Shown here one piece after another: positions 1,588 through 58,807 of a stretch of DNA of 64,000 nt (its first letter is position 1; every line of letters starts with the position of its first letter). This DNA is from a virus (lineage: Duplodnaviria > Heunggongvirae > Uroviricota > Caudoviricetes). The translations under genes were made by a program, and so were the position numbers. The notes under the pieces were generated by a model. That model saw only the letters and a program-made list of their open reading frames with translations, had not been told where the DNA came from and made no database searches. The stretch lies in the IMG/VR virus record IMGVR_UViG_3300021400_002728, positions 261,154 through 325,153 of that record. The stretch is one strand, 5' to 3'.

Positions 1588-1967
1588 TTTTTAGTCTCCT
1601 CTACGTCGTCTAAGTACATTGGAACAATCATTCTATATGTGGTTTGCCAGTGATTGACGAGTTCCTTTTTACCGTCAAAAGTTTTATAATAAAGATCTCG
1701 ATCACCATTCTGTTCAATTTCTTTTCGAATTCGTTCAAGAATAGTATTAAGTTTAAGTCGTTTTTCAGGAAATTCATCTATTCGATGTATATCCGTTAGA
1801 CTTTCACATTTTTCTGGAATAAGAATGATCTGTGTTTTAAGTCCTTTTACATCAATGAAACCATACTGGTCATGATATGGATAACACATATGATTAATTA
1901 AATCATATTCCTTTGCATATTTATCTATATATTCTTGTATAGTATTTACAAATATAGATGCCTTCAT
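1584..1967 (-). CDS. hypothetical protein
   Basis: GGAGG RBS, directly downstream of a consensus promoter. Confidence 0.6.
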   Translation of the reverse strand: MKASIFVNTIQEYIDKYAKEYDLINHMCYPYHDQYGFIDVKGLKTQIILIPEKCESLTDIHRIDEFPEKRLKLNTILERIRKEIEQNGDRDLYYKTFDGKKELVNHWQTTYRMIVPMYLDDVEETKK

Positions 1968-1994
1968 ATAATACCTCCAATTATTGATAATTGT

Positions 1995-2023
1995 ATTATA
2001 ACTTATCTTAGACTATTTGTAAA
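1995..2023 (-). promoter_or_regulatory. sigma70/sigmaA-type promoter
   Basis: TTTACA-17 nt-TATAAT on minus strand. Confidence 0.8.
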
Positions 2024-2071
2024 TAGTTTTCAAAACAAAATACCTACCTCTTTCGAGATAGGTATTTAATT

Positions 2072-2224
2072 TTAATCACGCATCTTTGCTTTAGCTATAA
2101 GAATTATTAAAAGTACACTTCCAGCAATAGCTGCTCCAATTATACCAAATATAAATAAGAATGGTAATGATGTAAGTGCCCATCCACTATTACATATTAT
2201 TATAAAATATGAATTATTTTCCAT
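2072..2224 (-). CDS. 50-aa membrane protein (not in ORF track)
   Basis: GGAG RBS; MENNSYFIIICNSGWALTSLPFLFIFGIIGAAIAGSVLLIILIAKAKMRD; followed by a hairpin near 2040-2068. Confidence 0.55.
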   Translation of the reverse strand: MENNSYFIIICNSGWALTSLPFLFIFGIIGAAIAGSVLLIILIAKAKMRD

Positions 2225-2225
2225 A

Positions 2226-2948
2226 TTATTCTCCTATATTATATATCTCTGATTCAATAAATGCTCTAGTTTCGTCATCAAGACACCAAGGTTTTAGAAT
2301 AAAGATTTCCCAACATTGAGCATATCCTTCTTCAGGTGTATTATAATTGTTTATGTGCATACCGTAATTGTTATGCCATTCTTGCCAATGTGCATTATAT
2401 AAGTTTAAAAATTCTGTACTATTAACACCTTTTACTCTTGGACTATATTCAAATGCATGTCCAATTTCATGTAAAATAGAGCTATTAGCAGAATCCTTAT
2501 AGTCAATGAGAATTTGTTTATTTCCCCAAACAGTTAATCCAAGTATACTGTCAAATCCATAAACTGGACCCAAATTATAGTCTACTTTTTCCCAAGTCCA
2601 TCCATCTGCATAAAATGCATTTCTAACTGCTTCTGGAAACATGTTAAAATAATTCTCAGTAGTCATTACATAAACAGGAGCTACTGGAACTACTTCAGGA
2701 ATTATCTCTAATACATGTGCTACGTTATATCCTAATTTTGATTTACTATATAACATAGTAGAAGTATTTGTAGATAAATTTATTTTAGGATCTATAACAA
2801 GTTCACTTGTATTTATTCTTGCTTTAGTAGGTACAGATGTAAATCCTAAGCAGATTATAGATAAACATAAAATAATACATACAATAAATTTAACGTTATT
2901 TTTCATTTTTACATGACTCCGTATGAAATTTTTTTGAAAAAAGTTCAA
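2226..2948 (-). CDS. exported zinc metallopeptidase-like protein
   Basis: N-terminal hydrophobic segment; ILHEIGH (HExxH) plus downstream EGYA; real start probably the internal MKNNV. Confidence 0.6.
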   Translation of the reverse strand: MNFFQKNFIRSHVKMKNNVKFIVCIILCLSIICLGFTSVPTKARINTSELVIDPKINLSTNTSTMLYSKSKLGYNVAHVLEIIPEVVPVAPVYVMTTENYFNMFPEAVRNAFYADGWTWEKVDYNLGPVYGFDSILGLTVWGNKQILIDYKDSANSSILHEIGHAFEYSPRVKGVNSTEFLNLYNAHWQEWHNNYGMHINNYNTPEEGYAQCWEIFILKPWCLDDETRAFIESEIYNIGE

Positions 2949-3196
2949 ATTAAATATTTTATATTGTATGTATATAGCATATTAGTGTAACCTTTTTTGC
3001 TATTAATTACTTAATAAAAACTAGATTATATTTCAAAGAAATGTAATCTTCTAGTAGGCTTACATTCTGAAGCTCCTATGTATTTATCACATGCATTGCA
3101 ATAACCTAATCTATAAGCTGTAATAATAGCTAAAATAACCGTAACTAGTTCTGCTATATAGATAAATATCTTTTTCATAACATTTTCCTCAAAAAG

Positions 3197-3224
3197 AAGG
3201 CTAGCCATATTTCAGACTAGCCTT
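3197..3224 (-). terminator. intrinsic terminator after FtsK-like gene
   Basis: aaggctag...ctagcctt stem followed by a T-rich tract on the minus strand. Confidence 0.6.
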
Positions 3225-3230
3225 AATTGT

Positions 3231-6200
3231 TTACTGTGGATTCTTAGGTTTTAACTTAATAGTTGTCTTAGGCGCAGGTGCCATAGGCTGATCTGCAGTC
3301 GTTTTATCAATATTAAGCTTAATAACCGGTTTCTGACCTGGAATCTGATTTAATGCTGCTCCAATTCTCTCTCTATTTGAAGGTTGACCAAAATTAGGTT
3401 GAGTAGGTCCAGTAGGAGCACCAAAATTAGGTTGAGCTGGTACAGTAGGTGGTGCAGGTGGAGTTTCAGTCTTAGGTGCAGATCCTCCAAATAAACTAGT
3501 TAAATCATCCATTGATACCGCAGGTGAATCTGCTTCAACCTTAGGTTTATCGTCTTTAGGCTCATCTTTAGACTTCTTACCACCAAACTTAAATGTTACT
3601 GGTTCTTCATCTTCGTCTTCATCATCTTCAAACGTATCTTCTTTCTTAGGCGGAGCTTCTTTCTTAGGTGCGTCATCTTTAAAGAGTTCATCTTCATCAA
3701 GATCTTCATCCTCTTCAAACTCATCCTCTTCTTCTTCGATTTCATCCTCTTCCTCTTCAGGTTCCTCACCAATCTTATGCTGAGGTACCCAACCAGTATT
3801 TAACTCGTCGAAGTTTTTACCACGTCTCTTACATAACTCTACAAACACAGGATTATTGTAAGAAAGCTTCTGATCTTCATCAAACTCCCAGTCCGTTATA
3901 TTGGACATTCTTTTACTTTCATAAAAGTCTAGACTATATCATCATTATATATACTATTACCATATATATAACACCTACCACTTCAATTTAATAGACTTAC
4001 TTTAGACTAATCTCATCTAAATGCTAACCATGTTGGCTTTACTCTACTCATTTACTCTTTATAGTATTTAACTATAAATACACTTTCGATAGTCGTTGAA
4101 CCCACCTCTATTCGAGGCTTGGATGCTGATTTCCCATTCTTATTACCCTTAGGTCTCGCCATTAACGACCTTAGGTCATCTCTTCAATTTTTTCTACTTT
4201 CGTCGCGTTCGCACTTAGTCGTATTTCATACTTATGCTGTAGCTTGAAGAGCTCTTAGGTACGTATCGTTATTTGATACTGTTCCAGCAATTCGATAGGT
4301 TTAAGGAGAACCACTGGGATATTTAATTCTCCGGCTGTGTATAATAGGTCTGAGTTTCAATAATCTCATTACCAGATCCAATGAAACCACGACCTTTAAT
4401 CTGAGGTTTAGCTAACTGAGAAATATCCTTCTCAAACATAAGCTGAGAAGCACCATCATCAAATCCACCAAGAAGAACTGACATCTGAATATTGTTCTTC
4501 AAGTCAGTAGAAATAGTAGAACCTGAAGCTCTCTGACATGCAAGTGCTAAGTGTACTGCAGCAGCACGACCAAGACGGGCAATAGATCCAAGAGCCTGTT
4601 TAACAATATCAACTGACTTATAATCATCAGAGGTCATCAACTCATTCAACTCGTCCGCAAGGAATAAAAGTACCTTAGGCACATAAATACCTTTCGACAT
4701 TCTTATTGAATTCTTATCAATATATGAGTTGTAACCTTTTACTTCAGGTAACTGAGGATTTCTTCCTTCCCATTTACCTTCCATCATGCCATCGTAAATT
4801 TTTTGAATAGTAGTAATAATAGGCTGACGTCCATCAGGATAAATAGCCTTCATTTTACTATAGTTTCTATCAGATTCATCAAGGTCTACCATAAGCTCGA
4901 AGATTTCATCAAACTGAACCTTCTTACCAAATACTTCAAAGTAGTTAACTTCTTTGTCTTTGATTTTATAAACATTATTGCATAGATAACCAAGTATCAA
5001 ACTCAGATTTAGTATAAAATACAAATAATTGTACTTTATTACGTTTAGCTACTTTTAACTTGTGTGTATCTCTAACTGTCCAAGTATGAATAGCATTTTC
5101 AAAATACTTAGATGTTTTAGATTTTTCTATCCACTCTGTTAACTTTTTACTATCATTTTTCTTATTGTATGGATGTAATCCATGTGTCCAATGAAAGTTA
5201 AGTTCAATATAAATATCTTTAGATGGAATGTATAAATCACATACAAAAGGATATTTAGTTGACTTATATCCGTGTTTAGCATCTGGATAAATACTTAAAA
5301 GTTGTTCATAACATAAATCTTCTGTCTTTGATACCTTAAATGAATGATTCTTCTTTTTAGTCAGATAACTTTTATGTTTAATCTCAGCTTTTTCTTTATC
5401 TGACTTCAACATATATGCATCTCTATGTTTCTGACCAATAATCTTCATTTCTTCTTCAGTTTTACTATCAAATGTAGCTTGTCTCTTTGCATAAATTGCT
5501 TTCTTTTCTTCATCAGATTTAGCATAGTATTTGTCTGAAATTTTTTGCTTTACTGATTCTACCGCAAATGGACTAGTTGTTCCATATACCTTAAGACAAG
5601 TTTCTTTATACTTTTTACTATTATTGTATGTTTCATCTCCATACTTTGCTTGGCAAGTAGATTTTCTTTTAAGAATAGATTTCTGTTTTTCATCATCTGT
5701 TCTATTTAATAAAGACTCACTCGTCTTATTTGGATTATTGTATGTAGGAGTTCCATACCTAATAATTTTAGTAGTTTTAACTGAATTAGAATGTATAGTA
5801 GATTTATTTAAGCATGATCTAGAACAATACTTATTATAACCTTTGAAAATATCCTTAAAGTTTGTAGGTTTACCGCATACTTCACATACACCTTTTCCAA
5901 AGTACATATCATAATATGTTTGTTGACTAATGTTATGCTGTTCTAAATGTTTCTTAAACAACCTATTTGAAATTGGTTGATTACATATTCTGCATATTGT
6001 TTCATTCATTCTAATTTCTCCTTAGACTATATCTTCACCCTATTACTAGGGGACTACCTTTTCGATTTAAGGGAATCTCACCCACCATATAGGCCCTACG
6101 AGTATTGCTACAAATATTCGAGATTTCCACTCTTATTTTACGATGTAGCCTCTGTAAGCTCTAGTCGTTGAACTTTTACCCTCGACTTAACTAACTTATG

Positions 6201-7448
6201 GTCTAAGTATAACGTTAGGGTACTTAGCTGCTAAGGTTCCTCATTCTACTAGCCCTTAGGATTTAACCATAGGCCAAACAATCAATTTTTTCTACTTTCG
6301 TTGCATTCACATCTATTCTTTCGAATTATGTTGTAGCTTGATTGTTGTTAGAGTCGTATTCATTATAAGAATACTGTTCCAGCAATTAAATAGTTTATTT
6401 CTCACGCAGATTACTCTACGCGCAGGCCATACATGTTTATAAAACCTGCATCTGTTCCATGAACTTAAATCTGTCCATCATAATCTGTTGGAAGTTGGCC
6501 ACTGCATCTGCTGCTGTAGGTACATCCAACGCGACACCTTTCACGCCTTTTCGGTTAACTCTATAATTTTCATTATAAACCTGACTATATCTCGTATATA
6601 AATTTATATACTCCTATCACTTTCAACTGTAACTCATCTTCAGTCGTACTCTCCTTATGGAGATAGTCGATACACCTTCAATTAAGCTTGGCACGGTATT
6701 ACCTGCTATCTTACGAAAGACCGTAGGATCTCTTAGTCAGCTGCTTCGTCTATGGTCTAAGGCTATATATCTTGTTGTAACACTTCATATAGCAGTCTTA
6801 TTCAACTGATACCGTTAGCAATATAGAATAAGATCTATATCACACCCTTGAGTAATGAGGTTCAATAGGAATGCGCAAAGTTACTTACGCCGCGTAAAAG
6901 GTTAAATTCTACTCTTTTACAGTCAACACCTACTAATTGGAATCGATCTGAGTAACGCGATACGTGACCCACTATGCTTTGTTCACACCGAATTGTTATC
7001 AATAAGCTTTTTATCTTATTTTCTATGTCATTACAACATAAGTCCAGCGTACCTTTTCATTACAGATTCTGCATCTGTGTCATCCAATGGTGAGGCCTCT
7101 TGGAAGTATTATATTCTCTAATATCTCAATTAAAGGTTCAACTTCTACGCGTTGCCGTTGACTATACTTTTACATATAGCCTTAACATTCTGATTATGGT
7201 TGCAAACCATTTTCCAGCTTAATTCCTCACTAATAATCCATAATTTACTTGATGACTTCATTATGGACGGCGAACTAATAGCTATGCATTTATTGCACTA
7301 TTAGTCAGTTTACCGATTTACCTGAGTTGTGAAATACAGATCCATCAGGCATTAGATACATAGGGTCATCTTCAAGCGAAAAACCAAAATATTGGTCGGT
7401 TTTGTTCAATGGTTTAACACTGAACTCAACCTGTTTCACTACACTCAT
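3231..7448 (-). CDS. FtsK/SpoIIIE-family ATPase 1, C-terminal half with N-terminal IntC; 5 exons: 7448-7312, 6988-6887, 6551-6444, 4980-4326, 3893-3231 (554 aa)
   Basis: Exons total 1665 nt and join in one frame: ...FHN|SGKSVCEQSIVGH...VGVDCKRVEF...IMMDRFKFMEQMQVNNVYK...LLFLADELNELM (Walker B)...IARLGRAAAVHLALACQR...IKGRG..., then an acidic/Pro-rich tail; GGAGG RBS before ATG at 7448. Confidence 0.88.
3894..4325 (-). ncRNA. group I intron 4 of FtsK-like gene (no ORF)
   Basis: Exon ends in U (GAGAAU) pairing with GUUCUCC; CCCAGU pairs with 3' exon ACUGGG; core UGCUGGAAC / AAUCAGCA / CAACGACUA / GAUAUAGUC; ends in G. Confidence 0.88.
4975..6009 (-). CDS. intron-encoded homing endonuclease (Zn-finger + KYG repeats + Vsr-like PD-(D/E)XK domain)
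   Basis: CxxC..HxxxH, CxxCGK, CSxxC; C-terminal CDLYIP..IELNFHWTH; lies inside intron 3 with AGGAG RBS. Confidence 0.8.
   Translation of the reverse strand: MNETICRICNQPISNRLFKKHLEQHNISQQTYYDMYFGKGVCEVCGKPTNFKDIFKGYNKYCSRSCLNKSTIHSNSVKTTKIIRYGTPTYNNPNKTSESLLNRTDDEKQKSILKRKSTCQAKYGDETYNNSKKYKETCLKVYGTTSPFAVESVKQKISDKYYAKSDEEKKAIYAKRQATFDSKTEEEMKIIGQKHRDAYMLKSDKEKAEIKHKSYLTKKKNHSFKVSKTEDLCYEQLLSIYPDAKHGYKSTKYPFVCDLYIPSKDIYIELNFHWTHGLHPYNKKNDSKKLTEWIEKSKTSKYFENAIHTWTVRDTHKLKVAKRNKVQLFVFYTKSEFDTWLSMQ
4981..6443 (-). ncRNA. group I intron 3 of FtsK-like gene, carries homing endonuclease
   Basis: GCAGGU pairs with GCCUGC (P1); core UUGCUGGAAC / UUCAACGACUAG / GAAGAUAUAGUC in 6020-6390; terminal G at 4981 restores Q-V-N-N-V frame. 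Confidence 0.85.
6552..6886 (-). ncRNA. group I intron 2 of FtsK-like gene
   Basis: 5' exon ends GGCGU; core AAUACCGUGCCAAG / UAUCGACUAU / GAGAUAUAGUC; ends AACCG; splicing restores R-G-V-K-G-V. Confidence 0.85.
6989..7311 (-). ncRNA. group I intron 1 of FtsK-like gene
   Basis: 5' exon ends UCGGU pairing with GCCG; AAUCAG, AACGCGUAG / GGUACGCU P7-like pair; ends AAUUCG; splicing restores S-G-K-S-V-C-E. Confidence 0.8.
7326..7448 (-). other. split intein C-fragment IntC-1 (41 aa)
   Basis: MSVVKQVEFSVKPLNKTDQYFGFSLEDDPMYLMPDGSVFHN followed by Ser: intein blocks F and G with His-Asn/Ser junction. Confidence 0.9.
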
Positions 7449-8518
7449 ATGTAATTTTCCTCCTTTACTAATTTTCCTGCACCATATATAGTTAATCTTC
7501 CATCTGAATATATAATAGTTGGTTTAGGAATTTTCGTAATTAAATTATTCTTGTTAAAATCTACTGTAGAATATTTATCAACTCCATGTAATAAACTTTT
7601 CAATAGTTTTAACTGCACATCAAAATCTTCAAACTCATAGATATGAATCAACCTAATTCCACTATCTCTGCAGTTAATAGATTTCTTAAGATGATAATCA
7701 ACTTCAGTTCCATTTTCTACTGCATGATAGTAAGATCCATTAAATTCAATTGCAAGTTTTAGATCAGGTAAGTAAATATCAATTTCATTTGGTGGAATTA
7801 CTTTTCTAGAATTAGTTGTAATTTTACCTTTATAATTCTTTTGAATCATTTCAACCAATTGTCTTTCTTTAGATGATCTATTACTACTTTTGAAGTTTTT
7901 GATGTAGTCTATATCAGATTTCTTTATAAGTCTTCTATTTTTATAAACCAATATATCTATATCATATATCCATCCACAACATTTATTTAGCTTAAATACA
8001 GACTCAAGATATACTAAATTATGTTCTTTTGCATATTTGTCTACAGCTGCCTCTTGTGACGATAATCGTTTAGCTTTAGCTTCATCTGTATGGCTATTTA
8101 TTTTAGCTTTTTCTGCAATAGATGGTATTTGGTATGAATTAACTACTCCATATCGATCTAATCTAGTTTTAACGGCTTTTTCTTGTATTTGTTGTGACTT
8201 AAATCCAACTCCACCATACTTTTTATTACATGTACGAATAGTTTTAGCTCTAATATTTGTATCTTTTTGTGGATTATCTACACGAAAATGATTCTGTGTA
8301 TTAGGATCAATTTGTGCACATTTAGCACAACAATGTTTCTGATAACCTTTTCTTAAATTTAGAAATGGAGTGGGTTTTCCACATATACATATTCCAGTAT
8401 TAGGCTGTTTTAGATATTGGTCATAATAATCTTTAGGTTTAACATTATGCACTGTATTGATGTGCTTAGATAATCCTTGGTATGATTTTGTGATATGACC
8501 ACATATTTCACACTTCAT
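7445..8518 (-). CDS. free-standing homing endonuclease (Zn-finger + PD-(D/E)XK/Vsr-like)
   Basis: Same N-terminal Cys/His module; EIDIYLPDLKLAIEFNGSYYH; stop overlaps the IntC start (ATGA). Confidence 0.8.
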   Translation of the reverse strand: MKCEICGHITKSYQGLSKHINTVHNVKPKDYYDQYLKQPNTGICICGKPTPFLNLRKGYQKHCCAKCAQIDPNTQNHFRVDNPQKDTNIRAKTIRTCNKKYGGVGFKSQQIQEKAVKTRLDRYGVVNSYQIPSIAEKAKINSHTDEAKAKRLSSQEAAVDKYAKEHNLVYLESVFKLNKCCGWIYDIDILVYKNRRLIKKSDIDYIKNFKSSNRSSKERQLVEMIQKNYKGKITTNSRKVIPPNEIDIYLPDLKLAIEFNGSYYHAVENGTEVDYHLKKSINCRDSGIRLIHIYEFEDFDVQLKLLKSLLHGVDKYSTVDFNKNNLITKIPKPTIIYSDGRLTIYGAGKLVKEENYI

Positions 8519-8586
8519 ACAGTGCTCCTTTCTTAACTGATTTTCTACAATAATTTGACAAAATTACTTATATTATTAAATAGCCT

Positions 8587-9237
8587 CTAGCAGCAATCCC
8601 AGTTATATAGAATATCTGAGAAGTCGTGTTGTTTAAGTTTAGCTCCGTTAATAAAGAAGTTTGCTACACCACAATCTCCCCATAACATAACTCCATTTTC
8701 AGAATCTAACTGGAAGAGCAATGTATCATACTGATTATCTTCTCTTGGATCAAACTGAGTAAAGAACGGATAACCTAAAACTTTACTACCGCATCCACCA
8801 AGTTCCTTATACATTTCATCAGTAATATCACCTTCATAACTAAATCTATAGTCAGCTATAGACAAATAATCTTCAGACAATTCAAATTTCATACCAAGAT
8901 CAGTTTGTTCTAAAGGTGAATCTTCCCAGTCTTTTCGTAATTCGTATCCTTTAGATATATCTTCATGATAAACTACCAAATGACTATTTTCTGCAAATAA
9001 TCCCCAACTATCATCATCTGCAACAAAGAACTGTAGTAATCCAGTTTTAGGGAATATATCATTTTCTGGTAGTTCTTCAAAATTGATCTGAGCTAAAAAC
9101 TGCATCTCAGGTCCAGTCTCAGTGGGCCAATAAAATGACCCACCGAGCTTACTTTTCTTATAATCAACCTTATCACCAAAAGATATATTAAATACCTTTG
9201 TAGTAGGTAAAAGTTGTTTTAATTCATCAACTGTCAT
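8587..9237 (-). CDS. YwqG/DUF1963 family protein
   Basis: SKLGG, FLAQIN, GLLQFF, GYPFFTQFDPR, LLFQLDS, WGDCG. Confidence 0.85.
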   Translation of the reverse strand: MTVDELKQLLPTTKVFNISFGDKVDYKKSKLGGSFYWPTETGPEMQFLAQINFEELPENDIFPKTGLLQFFVADDDSWGLFAENSHLVVYHEDISKGYELRKDWEDSPLEQTDLGMKFELSEDYLSIADYRFSYEGDITDEMYKELGGCGSKVLGYPFFTQFDPREDNQYDTLLFQLDSENGVMLWGDCGVANFFINGAKLKQHDFSDILYNWDCC

Positions 9238-9246
9238 ATAAACTCC

Positions 9247-9399
9247 TTATTTTATTTTGAATAGACTTCCAAATTTTCTTTGACGTCCACCTTTAGTAGT
9301 AGGAATACCAGTTGCCTTAGCTACCTTCTGTTTCATAGAAGATATTCCAGTAGCGCGTTTCCAACTAAATGAAAAACCGAATTTCTTTTTCTTTGCCAT
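9247..9399 (-). CDS. 50-aa basic small protein (not in ORF track)
   Basis: GGAG RBS; MAKKKKFGFSFSWKRATGISSMKQKVAKATGIPTTKGGRQRKFGSLFKIK fills the gap exactly. Confidence 0.7.
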   Translation of the reverse strand: MAKKKKFGFSFSWKRATGISSMKQKVAKATGIPTTKGGRQRKFGSLFKIK

Positions 9400-9410
9400 G
9401 TCAATTCTCC

Positions 9411-10087
9411 TTATACATTTATATTAGAATATTGATAACTTGTTATAATAGTACCGTCTAATTTAATATATACTACACCATAATTTACTACCGGTAGAGA
9501 CTTATTTTTTGAATATCTTTGATCTCTTGAACCATCCTTATTTGTATGTTGCCAATGTTTGCCAATTACTTCAGCATCTTTTGGAACTCTTTTATGTTCA
9601 ATAAATGGTTCATTTGCAGTATAAATATCAAAATCATTATAAGTATACTGATATAATTTAGATCCTTTACATACTATAACTCGATCAGGTAAAAACCAAA
9701 ATTTGCATTTTTTACTCTTAACTAATATTCCTGTATTAAGAAATGGAAATACTGATTTTAACTTAAATTTAGCATTTCGTCTTTTTAGAATAGTTCCTAC
9801 ATAACCATTTGTCTTTGAACATGTTTGTTTAGACGAATTAGTTATTTCATATATTTGTCTACTCTTCATTATATTTTGTATTAAAACGAAATTTTCATCA
9901 GTATCTTTAATATCTAATTGTATAGCTTGTTTTTTTAACTTATTCATGTATATAATACTTAATACTAATAATGGAATTGGAATTATATAACATGATAATA
10001 TACTACTAATTACTATTAGCGTTACTGCTAATTTTTTTTTGCGTACAAGTTAATTATTTGATTTTCCATTAAGTTGTTATTACTCAT
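9411..10087 (-). pseudogene. membrane protein gene frameshifted in an A9 tract
   Basis: ATG at 10087 hits a stop right after A9 (10032-10040); adding one A gives a 225-aa ORF with a TM helix continuing into ORF 9411..9947 (WQHTNKDGSRDQRY motif). Confidence 0.55.
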
Positions 10088-10105
10088 ATTAACGTCCCCT
10101 TTAAA

Positions 10106-12835
10106 TTATTTTTGATTCTTCTCACTAATAGGTACAATAACTGATCTTCCACTAGTAGCATCATATACAATTACTCTCTTGATATGTAAATCACTTCTCT
10201 TAGTAGATAGATAATGATATGCAAGAACTTGTCTTATATATCCTTCACCTATACAACCAGTAACCTTAATATCAAGAATTGTATCTTCAGTTATATAGTC
10301 AGCAAGACCTGCTATATGTGAAATAGATAAGTTTGGATCACAACAATTTGTTATATTTCCATCTGGATATAAAGTTTGCTTAACAAACTCTGCAACTTGC
10401 TTACCTTTAGATACTACTAACTTAACAAAGTATCTATAGTTGTCTTGAATAAGTGTACTTACTGATACTGACTTAATCAAAGCTCCTAATGATGTACTAC
10501 TATATGATTTAGCCATGTTTTCCTTATATTTCTGTACACATGCCTTGATGATAATACCATCATTTACAGTGTCAGACTTAGATTCTTGCATAGCTTTGTC
10601 TATATAATAACCTAAGAACTCATCACCATAAACTAAATACTTGGAATAGTACTCAACACAATATCCAAGCATAGAATTTACGCGTTTATCAATCTTGTAG
10701 TTATTCGAACCACTAAATAATTGATCTTTAGCAATTTCAAGCTCTTTTTCATATGTCATACTAAGATATTTGTTAAACTTATTATAATTACCTACTTTTG
10801 AACTAACTGCTTTTGTTTCAAACCATTGTGTTTTACCATCTACATTTGCAGCATGGAAAGATTCTACACCTAACATTGCGCTTTCATAATCATTTGTTTG
10901 TTTAGTGTATTCTTTATATAAATGAACTGCATTAAGCGGTGCTTTCTTATCATATACTGGTTGTAGATTATGTTCAATAAGGTTTATATCAAAATCTGTA
11001 CAGCGTTTCTTATACTTATTCAAATTATATGGATCAATCTGACATCTTAGAATAACTACAACATCTTGATTAGATAAATCTTGTTCAATTGCATCAAGAT
11101 TATCATTAACCTCTTCAATAATCATTTCAATATCTGTATCATCTATATTACTGATTTTGATATTTTTCATTGAACGTTCTACTAATGCGAAGAAATGATC
11201 TATATCTGCATAACCAATTTTAACTGTACTTAAATCTAAATTTTCAATGGCTTCTTTATTTTGTAGCTGTCTACGTAACTTAAAATTGACGAATGTATAA
11301 TTCTTAATCTCACGTCCATCATAATTTAGATTTACATACTTTTTGATATTATGTTTAGTGATATTTGGTCGTTTAGACTTGAAATAATCTAATACATCTT
11401 GGTCGAAAGGAATAGTAATTTTACATGCCTTTACACCATTCATAGAATAATATAGATTAGTCTTTCTATATTCAATACGACCTGTACCTTCATCAAAATA
11501 TCCTTCAGTATCAGTTACTAAGAAATGCTCAAAATCTTTACATAATACTTTTCGATATTCACCATCACTATCTATTGTATAGATACATGGTTGAACAGTT
11601 TTATGTTGATCTGAATAAAATTCTGTAAGAGGTTTAACTACATTAAAACCATATTTAGGATCTTTTACAATTTTGTACTTACCAGTTTTACCTTGAAGTT
11701 CAATAATATAAAGACCATTAGCCATTCTACCATTTTCAACTTCAACTGTTCTATTTGCTTTGATAGCTTGACAAGATATAATATTGCAGAATGCATACTG
11801 AAGTTCACCAGCTTCATCTTCACTAATTTGAAACTTTTCATTGTAATATACATAACATTCTACTGTATCATGTAACAGTTTCTTATTCTTAGGATTACAT
11901 ATATCAATTCCAGTTCCAGGATAGTTATTATTAGGATTAGGGAACTCATTGTATAAAAGAGCATTTCTTCTACAACGACCAATAACCTGAATAGTAGTCT
12001 TTACATTACCGGGTTGGTTATCCATATAAAGAACATGTGCTCTTTTAATGTTGATTCCTTCTACAATCTTAAATTTATTGATAATAACATCATATTCATT
12101 ATCATCTCTACAAATATCTGCCATATCATAAGCTTCATCTGTAATATTGATTACTTTTAGCTTATACTTTTTACAAATAATATCAAGTCTTGACATAATT
12201 TCTGGATCATCTTTAACACATCTGAAAATAGCACATGGATTGTAGTTAGGCACATTTTTATGCTGTTTCTTTACTTCCATCAATTTTTCAATAGCTTGCT
12301 CAGGTGTACCAACTTGTTGATTAACTGTACGAAGCATAAGTGTATCAGTAAAGTTACAATCAATAGCCGGATCTAAAATAGGCGTAGCTGAAAAATTGAT
12401 TACTTTGTAGCAAACTTTTTCAAGTAATTCATCATAACGGTTAGTTTTTATATGACCTTCATCACGAATCCATATACACTTAGTATCTTTAGGAATCTTA
12501 GCAATTATTTCATCTGCCTGAAGTTTACTGTTTAGTCTAAAGTCCGCAGTACCATATACAAACCAATTATCTTGCTTACAATCATCTTTTAGATCAGATC
12601 TAGTTTGATGTTGTAAACCACCTTTAGAAAGAGTAGTTACAATGAAATAGTAATTAGGAAACTTATTGATAAGTTTACTCATCATTTTAGTCTTACCTGT
12701 ACCAGTATTTGACTTAAAATCTACTCTTTTCATTTTAGTCCATAAAGGACTATCAATAATTTCAGATAACTCATTGATATATTCATCTTGTATCTGATTG
12801 ATTTTAGCAAATTCTTCCTTCTTTGATAAACTCAT
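10106..12835 (-). CDS. SF2 helicase (type III Res-like) fused to C-terminal PD-(D/E)XK nuclease
   Basis: TGTGKT, DEGH, SAT, QVIGRCRR; C-terminal ADY..LDIK..QVLAY. Confidence 0.75.
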   Translation of the reverse strand: MSLSKKEEFAKINQIQDEYINELSEIIDSPLWTKMKRVDFKSNTGTGKTKMMSKLINKFPNYYFIVTTLSKGGLQHQTRSDLKDDCKQDNWFVYGTADFRLNSKLQADEIIAKIPKDTKCIWIRDEGHIKTNRYDELLEKVCYKVINFSATPILDPAIDCNFTDTLMLRTVNQQVGTPEQAIEKLMEVKKQHKNVPNYNPCAIFRCVKDDPEIMSRLDIICKKYKLKVINITDEAYDMADICRDDNEYDVIINKFKIVEGINIKRAHVLYMDNQPGNVKTTIQVIGRCRRNALLYNEFPNPNNNYPGTGIDICNPKNKKLLHDTVECYVYYNEKFQISEDEAGELQYAFCNIISCQAIKANRTVEVENGRMANGLYIIELQGKTGKYKIVKDPKYGFNVVKPLTEFYSDQHKTVQPCIYTIDSDGEYRKVLCKDFEHFLVTDTEGYFDEGTGRIEYRKTNLYYSMNGVKACKITIPFDQDVLDYFKSKRPNITKHNIKKYVNLNYDGREIKNYTFVNFKLRRQLQNKEAIENLDLSTVKIGYADIDHFFALVERSMKNIKISNIDDTDIEMIIEEVNDNLDAIEQDLSNQDVVVILRCQIDPYNLNKYKKRCTDFDINLIEHNLQPVYDKKAPLNAVHLYKEYTKQTNDYESAMLGVESFHAANVDGKTQWFETKAVSSKVGNYNKFNKYLSMTYEKELEIAKDQLFSGSNNYKIDKRVNSMLGYCVEYYSKYLVYGDEFLGYYIDKAMQESKSDTVNDGIIIKACVQKYKENMAKSYSSTSLGALIKSVSVSTLIQDNYRYFVKLVVSKGKQVAEFVKQTLYPDGNITNCCDPNLSISHIAGLADYITEDTILDIKVTGCIGEGYIRQVLAYHYLSTKRSDLHIKRVIVYDATSGRSVIVPISEKNQK

Positions 12836-12847
12836 AATTCCTTTCCT

Positions 12848-13630
12848 CTATTCATCTGCATCTTCTAACTCATTATTAAGTATCTGATTACTTAATTTTG
12901 TAGATTTAGATTTAGCTTGTACTTCTTCTGCCTGTGTTATATAGTCTGTTCCATATTTCTTTTTAACACCTTGCTTATACTCTTCTTTTCCTTTTTCAGA
13001 TTTCATATTATGGCCAGTTCCGTAGTGTTTTATATAAGTTTGTTTACATTTTTCTTTAACTATATCAGATTGAAAAGGATTTTCAACACCATAATGATCT
13101 AATGTAGTTTGTTTACGTTTCTCTTTTGCAGATTCAATCTGTCCAGTATAATCTACACCATAAGTTTGTTGTATAGTAGAAATTCGTATAGACTCATATT
13201 CAGCAGTCTTCTGATATTCATATTGGCAAGCTCTACTACATGTTTTATTATATCCAGTCATAATAGTTCCAAATTTAGTAGGTTTTCCGCAGATTCTACA
13301 CACACCTTCTTTAAGAAACTTATCATAATAATCTTTTGTAGTAAGTCCATGTTTTTTACAATGACTTGGCATACCTAAAGCATTAGTTTCTTGACCACAT
13401 ATTCTACAAATTATCTTTTGTGATTGATTCTTACATGACTTACATAGTTTATGATAACCATTAGATAGGCTAATAAAGTCCGCTTCTTTTCCGCATTTTT
13501 CACAAATACCTTCAGATTCAGCTTTAATATACCTATCATAATATCTTTTATCACTTAAATGATGAGAAAAATGAATATGGTATGCAAAGCCTGCATCAGT
13601 AAATTCTTGATTACATATTTGACATATCAT
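12848..13630 (-). CDS. homing-endonuclease-like Zn-finger/KYG-repeat protein without nuclease domain
   Basis: Two copies of the Cys/His module, YG repeats, ends ELEDADE. Confidence 0.65.
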   Translation of the reverse strand: MICQICNQEFTDAGFAYHIHFSHHLSDKRYYDRYIKAESEGICEKCGKEADFISLSNGYHKLCKSCKNQSQKIICRICGQETNALGMPSHCKKHGLTTKDYYDKFLKEGVCRICGKPTKFGTIMTGYNKTCSRACQYEYQKTAEYESIRISTIQQTYGVDYTGQIESAKEKRKQTTLDHYGVENPFQSDIVKEKCKQTYIKHYGTGHNMKSEKGKEEYKQGVKKKYGTDYITQAEEVQAKSKSTKLSNQILNNELEDADE

Positions 13631-57525: not shown

Positions 57526-58807
57526 CTGATTGTACCTCCACAGACTGATCTATATAGATCGCTTTTCCACCACCAGTTTGATAAATATATGCTGCATCAA
57601 ACGGATATGATTCTCCTCCATTCCACTTATTATTCTTAGTATCTGTAAATAAGAATAAATGATTATCAGAGTTAATCATAAAACAACGTACAGATTTATT
57701 CTTAACTACTTTTACATCTGAAATTAAATAATCTGTAAGATTTCCAGGAATAATGTCACCAGATTTAACCTCTGATGCAGTTACTGGACATATTTTATCT
57801 TTTCGTAAAATTGCTAATTTATGCACATCATCTGCATATAAAACTATACTATCATCACTATACTGACTCATTGCCTCTAATGTAAACTTATACAGTTTAT
57901 TAGATTCATGAATTTCGTATACTGCAAGTACTTTGACTGGTTTATTTCCATATCCAAATACTTCATCACCGACTTCAATCGTCTTTATAGTTTTATATCC
58001 TTTAGTAGTAGGTACTATTGTATTTAACCCTAAAGGAGAACCTACACATAACGCCTGAGGTGCAGATGGTGTATCAACAGTTTTAGCAATTTTGCCATCT
58101 TCATATATGTAGTTAGATCTACCTTCATTCTTGATCGAGTTCAAATTCCAGGAAACTTCTCCAAGTCCTGAAAGACCAATAGGAATAAATTCAGGTGGTC
58201 TTAACCAACTACCTTTATATTTTGCAATATGAGGTGGAAGAGGTGTACCAACAAAGGCACATTCTCTTGCAGCAAAGTCAAATTCATTAACCCACTCATA
58301 GTTAGGTAGGTACTTATTCAATGACAAACACAAGTTAACTGCAACTTGTTCCTTAAACGTATTAGGATTGATCTTAATCGTGATCTTGTTAATTTTAGTA
58401 CCTTCATAACCTAGTTGGAAAGGTGGATTGTTAATGTCTTTTAATTCAAATTCGCCAGTTTCTTTATTTTTAACCTTCGAATCGTTAGAAATAACTGGCT
58501 CAAGAACTCCAAATACTGCTAGCAATTCTTCTCTTTGTTTGGCGACTATAACTTTTTTAATAGTAGCAAGAATTACCATCGTAATCAAAATACCAAATGC
58601 ATAAAGGCCTAATAATACCCAAAATATTTTATGACCTTTAAGTGGTAAAACTTGGAATAGTACACCTAAACCAAAAATTCCTACAAGTATAAGGGCATCT
58701 CTTTTTGAATATTGATAACCAACACTATTGCCGTCGCTGATGTTCAGTATTTTATTAGTCGCAAACTGAGCAATAGCAACGACTAAGAAAAATACAAATA
58801 TAAACAT
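57515..58807 (-). CDS. FtsK/SpoIIIE-like protein 2, N-terminal half: TM region, cis mini-intein and terminal IntN-2
   Basis: 3 TM; FIPIGL..VSW; PQALCVGS[intein]TGGGK = Walker A, then AIYIDQSVEVQSDEV-stop. Confidence 0.78.
   Translation of the reverse strand: MFIFVFFLVVAIAQFATNKILNISDGNSVGYQYSKRDALILVGIFGLGVLFQVLPLKGHKIFWVLLGLYAFGILITMVILATIKKVIVAKQREELLAVFGVLEPVISNDSKVKNKETGEFELKDINNPPFQLGYEGTKINKITIKINPNTFKEQVAVNLCLSLNKYLPNYEWVNEFDFAARECAFVGTPLPPHIAKYKGSWLRPPEFIPIGLSGLGEVSWNLNSIKNEGRSNYIYEDGKIAKTVDTPSAPQALCVGSPLGLNTIVPTTKGYKTIKTIEVGDEVFGYGNKPVKVLAVYEIHESNKLYKFTLEAMSQYSDDSIVLYADDVHKLAILRKDKICPVTASEVKSGDIIPGNLTDYLISDVKVVKNKSVRCFMINSDNHLFLFTDTKNNKWNGGESYPFDAAYIYQTGGGKAIYIDQSVEVQSDEV
57518..57562 (-). 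other. putative split intein N-fragment IntN-2 (15 aa, Ala start)
   Basis: AIYIDQSVEV directly after Walker A GK; fits the block A pattern of Ala-start inteins. Confidence 0.6.
57578..58036 (-). other. 153-aa mini-intein, Pro1 / block-F Cys / C-terminal Gln
   Basis: PLGLNTIVPTTKGYKTIKTIEVGDEV..., ADDVH, VRCFMINSDNHLFL, ...YIYQ|T; removal restores GSTGGGK. Confidence 0.8.

Follow-up and report, generated by a model that had tools for sequence, protein, structure and literature searches.

Can one conserved phage gene accommodate four self-splicing introns and one part of a split intein and still encode an uninterrupted protein? This question is raised by a gene that lies at positions 7448 to 3231 of a 64,000-nucleotide (nt) stretch of DNA, here called the window, which spans bases 261154-325153 of the IMG/VR virus record IMGVR_UViG_3300021400_002728. 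The record, rated complete, measures 394,266 bp and carries direct terminal repeats, and the host of the insertion-bearing gene is a 394-kb jumbo phage. The window has a GC content of about 30%, and all of its genes are on the minus strand. Current gene calls break the gene, which encodes the C-terminal half (C-half) of an FtsK/SpoIIIE-like ATPase, into five or more "hypothetical" fragments. An initial annotation made from the sequence proposed instead four group I introns at 7311-6989, 6886-6552, 6443-4981 and 4325-3894. We find this reading supported because the junctions are exact, each insertion has a P1 helix with a U.G pair and a terminal G, the P3-P9 cores covary, one insertion carries an endonuclease open reading frame (ORF), and related phages are polymorphic for the presence of the insertions. 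We therefore consider it very probable, judging from sequence, that all four are functional self-splicing group I introns.

Joining the minus-strand exons 7448-7312, 6988-6887, 6551-6444, 4980-4326 and 3893-3231 gives 1665 nt, a frame of 554 codons that stays open up to its terminal stop codon and matches the uninterrupted frame that had been counted as 555 codons. The four pairs of coordinates are borne out by this frame, by alignments with homologues and by the DNA of relatives, and at all four insertions the 5' exon ends in U and the insertion in G, as the initial annotation had described. Exon 1 opens with the 41 codons of the C-terminal intein fragment (IntC, 7448-7326; MSVVKQ...SVFHN), a 41-residue start also found in the homologues P0004 and P0022, and the translation continues across the intein end as FHN|SGKS. 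The remaining 14 nt of exon 1 (7325-7312), which separate the intein end from intron 1 exactly as noted before, encode SGKS and the GT of a valine codon, that is, the second half of a Walker A motif that reads GGTGSGKSV in contiguous homologues. The two small internal exons also have the lengths first reported, with exon 2 (6988-6887, CEQSIVGHVSRYSDRFQLVGVDCKRVEFNLLRG) measuring 102 nt and exon 3 (6551-6444, KGVKGVALDVPTAADAVANFQQIMMDRFKFMEQMQ) 108 nt. Exon 4 (4980-4326, 655 nt) holds the second half of the FtsK/SpoIIIE ATPase domain and scores 22.8 bits with PF01580 when searched alone, while exon 5 (3893-3231, 663 nt with the stop) starts with the conserved DWEFDEDQKLSYNNP and continues into an acidic, proline-rich tail. 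Directly past the stop codon lies a terminator-like hairpin with a T-run (3224-3197), and such a hairpin is found at the gene end only, the other minus-strand matches being two weak ones, one of which is the P1 helix of intron 2.

The initial annotation had staked its proposal on whether intron-less homologues align across the predicted junctions, and the alignments are free of gaps over all four joins (GKSV|CEQS, LRGV|KGVK, MQV|NNVY and QPEN|DWEF) in the uninterrupted proteins P0004, P0022, P0027, P0030, P0039 and P0042. When P0004 (552 aa, with the same IntC start) is mapped onto the genome by tblastn, it falls into blocks of residues 1-46, 47-80, 81-116, 116-334 and 335-548, and for the uninterrupted relatives mapped in this way the residue numbers run on consecutively over each gap. 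Protein identity to P0004 is 97% for exons 2 (residues 47-80) and 3 (residues 81-116) and 93% for exon 4. With exon 4 as the query we recovered 68 longer relatives, and 518 relatives at E <= 0.001 in a representative library. At three of the four joins, the junction splits a codon. The insertion pattern and its agreement with the homologues are far beyond chance.

With respect to the RNA itself, a P1 helix that bears the U.G pair and a P3/P7 pseudoknot core are present in all four insertions, in agreement with the P1 pairing and P7-type cores claimed for them. Intron 1 (7311-6989, 323 nt, no ORF) pairs CGGU with GCCG in P1 and GCGUA with UACGC in P7. Intron 2 (6886-6552, 335 nt, no ORF) has the P1 pairing GCGU/GCGC, and intron 3 (6443-4981, 1463 nt) has the P1 pairing GCAGGU/GCCUGC and consists of a group I core at about 6443-6025 followed by the endonuclease ORF. 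In intron 4 (4325-3894, 432 nt, no ORF), P1 is GGAGAAU/GUUCUCC, and a P10 helix forms between CCCAGU and the adjacent ACUGGG of exon 5. P7 is GACUA/UAGUC in introns 2 to 4, where it is invariant in the alignments and thus speaks neither for nor against the helices. By sequence, the introns form three families: introns 3 and 4 are homologous (the intron 4 family profile finds intron 3 by nhmmer with 115.8 bits, E = 2e-34) and have the 11-nt GAAA-receptor motif UAUGG/CCUAAG as well as GAAA loops, while introns 1 and 2 each form a family of their own. A structured insert of 50 to 110 nt between P7 and P3' is present in all four, at the P7.1/P7.2 position typical of phage introns of subgroup IA2, and on this topology only we tentatively describe intron 4 as IA2-like.

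Covariation extends over most of these cores. An RNAalifold consensus of four intron 4-type sequences contains P3, P5, a long-range P5a, P6, P7.1/7.2, P8 and P9, with compensatory changes at 38 of its 89 pairs (in P3, P5, P5a, P6, P8 and P9), and that of four intron 2-type sequences contains P1, P3, P4/P5-like helices, P7.1 and P7.2, with 30 of 71 pairs compensatory, including pairs in P1 and P3. A blastn search with the intron 4 core returned 104 phage records, 61 of them from Staphylococcus phages, and a feature of Clostridium phage D-1873 annotated as "Group I catalytic intron" shares about 74% identity with that core; intron 2 finds matches in Bacillus phage G, in the DNA polymerase genes of Mammaliicoccus phages and in Prevotella phages. 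Two alternative placements were rejected in the course of this work. The Rfam alignment would put P1/P2 of intron 4 inside exon 4, and we kept the junction set by the homologues; in intron 2, a GACUA at intron bases 149-153 was considered as P7, but it covaries with UCAG as a P5-like helix, and P7 was assigned to the GACUA at 219-223.

Several observations weigh against the reading of these elements as four active group I introns. At the gathering score of the Rfam group I model RF00028 (50 bits), no match was returned for the whole window. Under E-value thresholds the model matches intron 4 (41.4 bits, E = 4e-8), the core of intron 3 (22.1 bits) and the 3' part of intron 2 over P8-P7'-P9 (21.3 bits), all below 50 bits, and a focused E-value search of intron 1 gave no match. 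The Infernal-type check suggested in the initial annotation gave sub-threshold matches for introns 2, 3 and 4 and none at the gathering score. Furthermore, P1 of introns 1 and 2 has only four exon-guide pairs, intron 2 has two additional, noncanonical hairpins between P3 and P4, and intron 3 has an ORF of about 1 kb between its core and its 3' splice site. The intron-exon pairing of intron 3 (a long "P10") depends largely on the self-complementary TTTATAAA and is weakened thereby, and splicing of the four introns is predicted. We read the low RF00028 scores as limited sensitivity of the model for phage-type introns, because the evidence from structure and junctions is independent of that model.

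The same low or absent scores and short P1 helices would also fit a gene in decay, in which the insertions are group I introns by descent and at least one is inactive (likeliest intron 1, or intron 2 with its 4-bp P1), the resulting pseudogene being tolerated through FtsK-like paralogues. The genome indeed carries several other FtsK-like fragments, and an endonuclease ORF is missing from three of the four introns, whether through loss or because it was never there. On the other hand, the exons keep an open reading frame that is highly conserved at the identities to P0004 given above, the core helices are intact and compensated among phages, and the intron-bearing arrangement is kept at 86-97% identity in three independent contigs from related phages (L007, L018 and L019, described below). 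We regard such decay as improbable and hold to the reading of four functional introns.

Intron 1 deserves separate treatment, being the insertion that RF00028 does not see. Its P1-P9 fold was proposed by hand and tested for covariation: in three orthologues, 97.7% of the cells are paired and 12 pairs are compensatory, a result reached by none of 500 shuffles. By blastn, an intron 1-type core that is not annotated was also found, together with an ORF, between the gyrA fragments of two cultured phages. These are Yersinia phage phiR1-37 (AJ972879.2, at about 244.6 kb) and Bacillus phage vB_BsuM-Goe21 (OM728297.1, at about 44.9 kb), in both of which gyrA is annotated as two coding sequences (CDS). 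When the two relatives are added, 96% of the cells remain paired and 16 of 45 pairs are compensatory (0 of 500 shuffles; slid controls reach 33-43%). The compensatory changes fall in P3, P4, P5, P6 and the P7 pseudoknot, where GCGUA/UACGC is replaced by GCAUA/UAUGC, and the splice-site U.G is invariant in all five family members. An earlier candidate for P7, GACUA at intron bases 6-10 with UAUAGUC at 146-152, was rejected; UAUAGUC pairs locally as P6, and covariation points to GCGUA/UACGC. Because the fold pairs and covaries and the splice-site U.G does not vary, we class intron 1 as a group I-type ribozyme whose family escapes RF00028. The gyrA insertions resemble intron 1 in that their cores are 72-77% identical to it and share its helices, in which compensatory changes occur, as well as the invariant U.G; they differ in that the host gene is that of DNA gyrase A and the core follows an ORF of about 310 to 335 aa, whereas intron 1 is ORF-less. 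They are probably unrecognised group I introns with a homing endonuclease. RF00028 fails to see the intron 1 family in cultured phages as well.

A second alternative is that the pieces are never joined as RNA, and that they work as separately translated peptides or are connected by ribosomal bypassing or some other route without a ribozyme. Phage split genes whose fragments function as subunits do exist, and splicing is here a prediction. However, exons 2 and 3 encode just 34 to 36 residues, and no start codon or ribosome-binding site of their own was seen; the joins that lie inside a codon are equally hard to reconcile with separate peptides, and the insertions are 323 to 1463 nt of conserved, covarying RNA with group I topology. 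Taken together, this makes expression of the gene without RNA splicing very unlikely, and splicing by group I introns remains the reading that we prefer.

With respect to the distribution of the introns among related phages, relatives' loci were collected with a single-protein query (3 viral loci), an alignment query (7) and a metagenome scan (27), and the spliced protein was mapped onto 38 loci. We observe that sister phages carry different subsets of the four introns. Of the four, L007 (a 504-kb NCBI contig) carries intron 1 alone, the other three being missing precisely at the predicted bases; intron 2 is the only one in L008 and L009 and intron 3 the only one in L018, intron 4 is present in L023, and L010 combines introns 2, 3 and 4. 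In L019, the order of introns 1, 2 and 3 is that of the window, and intron 4 is missing. Seen from the introns, intron 1 is precisely absent from L008 and L010 and present in L007 and L019, intron 3 is precisely absent from L007 and L008 and present in L010, L018 and L019, and intron 4 is absent from L007, L008 and L019. In L007, L008 and L010, the alleles without an insertion agree with the predicted junctions base for base. This pattern of presence and absence looks like the polymorphism expected of mobile introns, and because of it an assembly artefact is less likely. An artefact, in the form of a chimera of intron-containing and intron-less variants, might be suspected in a metagenome-derived record whose close relatives are polymorphic for intron content, but it is scarcely credible given that the independent L019 matches the window at 97.6% identity over intron 3 and 97.5% over the 5' part of intron 2, that L010 carries introns 2, 3 and 4 together, and that the record, which carries direct terminal repeats, is rated complete.

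Mobility is also suggested by the endonuclease genes in and around the locus. The ORF of intron 3 (6009-4975, 344 aa) encodes a predicted homing endonuclease with a zinc-finger N-terminus (phrog_3339 "homing endonuclease", E = 1.2e-13); it has AAGGAG 8 nt ahead of its ATG, and its stop codon ends 6 nt inside exon 4. A free-standing homing endonuclease gene (8518-7445, 357 aa; phrog_3339 E = 4e-44; DUF7487) overlaps the IntC start codon as ATGA, and a further endonuclease of 548 aa (35723-34077, phrog_3339 E = 7e-116) lies directly past the intein stub of the N-terminal half (N-half) of the split gene described below. The intron 3 enzyme shares 28-31% identity, over partial alignments, with these two free-standing copies in the window. 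In relatives, the same endonuclease family is encoded within intron 2 and intron 4 orthologues as well as at further sites; in the intron 2 orthologues of L008 and L010, the ORF sits in the P8 loop and measures 334 aa and 187 aa, respectively. After the 548-aa endonuclease follows a 144-aa ORF (34080-33646) whose best named PHROG is the endonuclease phrog_681 (E = 1e-5). Homing-type nuclease genes thus border the split gene at each of its two break points, the 357-aa gene at one and the 548-aa and 144-aa genes at the other.

ORF-less intron 1 lies about 140 nt from the free-standing 357-aa endonuclease gene, and, by analogy, that enzyme may mobilise the intron. Such collaborative homing, in which a free-standing endonuclease serves an ORF-less intron, has been described for cyanophage psbA and for T4-like phages. 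The likeness extends to the relationship of the enzymes, in that the free-standing endonuclease has among its closest relatives an intron-borne enzyme (41% identical) at the gene start in L028 and L031, whose intron occupies a neighbouring site, after SG and 8 nt upstream of the intron 1 site (site A). The 357-aa gene is absent from L008 and L010 and has a 96% identical copy in L019. In contrast to the described cases, L007 has intron 1 but not this endonuclease gene beside it.

The protein that these elements interrupt is, by homology, a membrane-anchored FtsK/SpoIIIE-like ATPase. The contiguous homologue P0027 (725 aa) matches PF01580 (FtsK_SpoIIIE) with 71.3 bits and phrog_1358 "FtsK/SpoIIIE-like protein", P0004 reaches 51.1 bits (the PF01580 cut-off is 24 bits), and the nearest solved chains are the "DNA translocase coupling protein" 6o1z and FtsK 2ius. 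Residues 7-237 of P0027 align with the N-half gene (36575-35784), 28.5 kb upstream of the C-half gene, which encodes hydrophobic N-terminal segments that look membrane-spanning by eye and the start of the ATPase domain up to GGTG, followed by a 16-aa intein block-A stub, CMEENTPVMMYDTLVH, and a stop codon. Since one half carries GGTG and the other SGKS, a complete Walker A motif exists only once the two halves are joined. Most of about 120 homologues conserve a stub of this kind, 15 to 17 residues long with Cys first.

A third intein piece may exist. The candidate middle fragment P0325 (25212-24718, 164 aa) shows 44% identity (E = 1e-17) to the contiguous N-terminal intein fragment (IntN) of P0320, which aligns with the C-terminal part of P0325, and it matches PF05203 (Hom_end_hint) with 39.8 bits. 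The intein elements would then be distributed over separate genes, with Cys1 block A in the N-half, Hint block B in P0325 and HN|S at the border of IntC and the C-extein. A predicted complex of the IntN stub, IntC and P0325 scored 0.84, compared with 0.68 for a control with one chain swapped, and we count this result neither in favour of assembly nor against it. With the conserved stub, the separate Hint fragment and IntC, three-way protein splicing is plausible, and the system may represent a natural three-piece split intein, which would be new. Of the Pfam intein models run on the whole genome, PF14890 gave no match and PF13403 (Hint_2) a single weak one (E = 0.066) at about 57917-58024 of the window, within a 430-aa ORF (58807-57515). 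Other neighbours in the window are a DUF1963 protein (9237-8587, Pfam E = 1.5e-45) and, by eye, a sigma-70-like protein of 468 aa (26621-25215) and a CheY-type receiver-like protein of 119 aa (33626-33267).

These observations can be combined into a model of how the gene would be expressed. A single pre-mRNA would probably run from the IntC start codon at 7448 to the terminator-like hairpin, and each intron would fold into a P1-P9 ribozyme whose guide pairs with the last four to seven exon bases and so sets the U.G wobble at the 5' splice site. Exogenous guanosine would attack this site, after which the terminal G of the intron would dock in P7 for exon ligation. The expected product is a 554-codon mRNA for IntC and the C-extein, and protein trans-splicing would then join the encoded protein to the N-half. 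The introns, in turn, would spread as selfish elements by means of one family of zinc-finger homing endonucleases, with one member in intron 3, others in the intron 2 and 4 orthologues of sister phages, and one encoded free-standing beside the gene. The insertions, their exact junctions, the polymorphism, the covarying folds and the homology of the endonucleases are shown by the sequences; from these features we infer self-splicing, the single transcript, homing and protein splicing alike.

Insertion into this gene extends well beyond the four sites of the window, since 13 or 14 different sites of insertion can be counted among relatives, all in a coding stretch of about 900 nt. L019 (Ga0255341_1003412, about 1600-8260) has six introns, located after GKSV, DCKR, LRGV, KGVA, MQV and GFIG, which leave micro-exons of about 26 nt (VEFNLLRGV) and about 22 nt (KGVKGVA), and L031 and L034 have further insertion sites after SG and LLR. 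Among intron 2-type copies, all those with a readable 5' junction (window 6873-6890, L019, L031 and L012, at five neighbouring sites) have an exon end that pairs with the intron's own 4-nt guide; at four sites GCGU faces the guide GCGC, and at the fifth GGGU faces GCUC. GCGU occurs four times in the spliced CDS, each time within 92 nt around the intron 2 site. Transposition of group I introns by reverse splicing has long been proposed and rarely documented, and the pairing of exon ends with guides would fit spread by guide-directed reverse splicing beside endonuclease homing. The same exon-end pattern fits equally well with selection for P1 compatibility after homing.

Over the whole 394-kb genome, RF00028 and our family profiles return about six group I-like matches, three of which, plus intron 1, lie in this gene. 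One of the matches elsewhere belongs to the intron 3/4 family (genome positions 230755-231154, about 30 kb before the window; nhmmer, 258.7 bits) and adjoins an FtsK-like paralogue fragment at 230746-230489; another RF00028-like match lies just after the window, at 326589-326838. That introns and inteins are concentrated in FtsK-like paralogues suggests that this phage group conserves these ATPases and that they are important to it. The locus shows how far selfish elements can load one conserved gene without destroying it, as one ATPase is predicted to need four ribozyme reactions (six in a sister phage) and trans protein splicing. Gene callers and Rfam miss most of this arrangement. Furthermore, sister alleles with and without each intron provide material for studies of homing, collaborative homing, possible reverse-splicing transposition, splicing order and the recognition of micro-exons.

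How does this gene compare with known systems? Megablast of positions 3200-13000 of the window against GenBank phages gave a single match of 140 nt. The kind of element is known, and what is new is the count per gene, the host gene, the intron 1 family to which RF00028 is blind, the micro-exons of the relatives and the additional presence of a split intein whose pieces are dispersed. In PMC11878797, which cites Landthaler & Shub 1999, at most three introns per phage gene are reported, in orf142 of Staphylococcus phage Twort and in some DNA polymerase and terminase genes of Bastillevirinae. These genes, whose introns are mostly of subgroup IA2, resemble the present one in having several group I introns in one gene, often with endonuclease ORFs and polymorphic among phages. 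They differ in that three introns or fewer are reported for them (compared with four here and six in L019) and in that the host gene encodes a polymerase, terminase, ribonucleotide reductase or tail protein and not an FtsK/SpoIIIE ATPase.

Intron-rich gut jumbo phages have also been published. The Jug phages (PMC12880540), with genomes of 360-402 kb and about 30% GC, have a mean of 18.5 group I introns in each genome, terL and nrdD being broken into two to three and up to four fragments, respectively; stand-alone endonucleases and inteins occur as well, and metatranscriptome reads confirmed about half of the predicted introns; FtsK is not mentioned in that text. Our record agrees with the Jug phages in size and GC content, and we liken it to them by these two measures alone. 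Genes fragmented by group I introns and inteins are a feature common to Jug and crAss-like phages and the present one, while the average of 18.5 introns per genome contrasts with about six group I-like matches here, where four introns share one gene. The initial description of a host gene with four introns as unusual stands insofar as the literature cited here reports three per phage gene at most, and nrdD in four fragments, and has to be tempered in view of the published intron-rich jumbo phages and the six introns of L019. A more far-reaching reading, which we consider less likely than not, is that the FtsK-like ATPase gene of gut-type jumbo phages is the most densely intron-colonised protein gene so far in a prokaryotic virus.

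The combination of RNA and protein splicing in one gene has its own precedent, since bnrdE and bnrdF of Bacillus phage SPbeta have introns and an intein in one operon or gene. Three intron sites are reported for nrdE of the Bacillus cereus group (PMC2248736). As in these nrdE and nrdF genes, one protein here would need both RNA and protein splicing, and the insertions lie in conserved catalytic motifs. Unlike the inteins of SPbeta and the B. cereus group, which are contiguous, the intein described here is split, with halves 28.5 kb apart and perhaps in three pieces. Set beside these systems, the gene is recognisably of a known type, though an extreme example of how selfish elements accumulate in one conserved gene.

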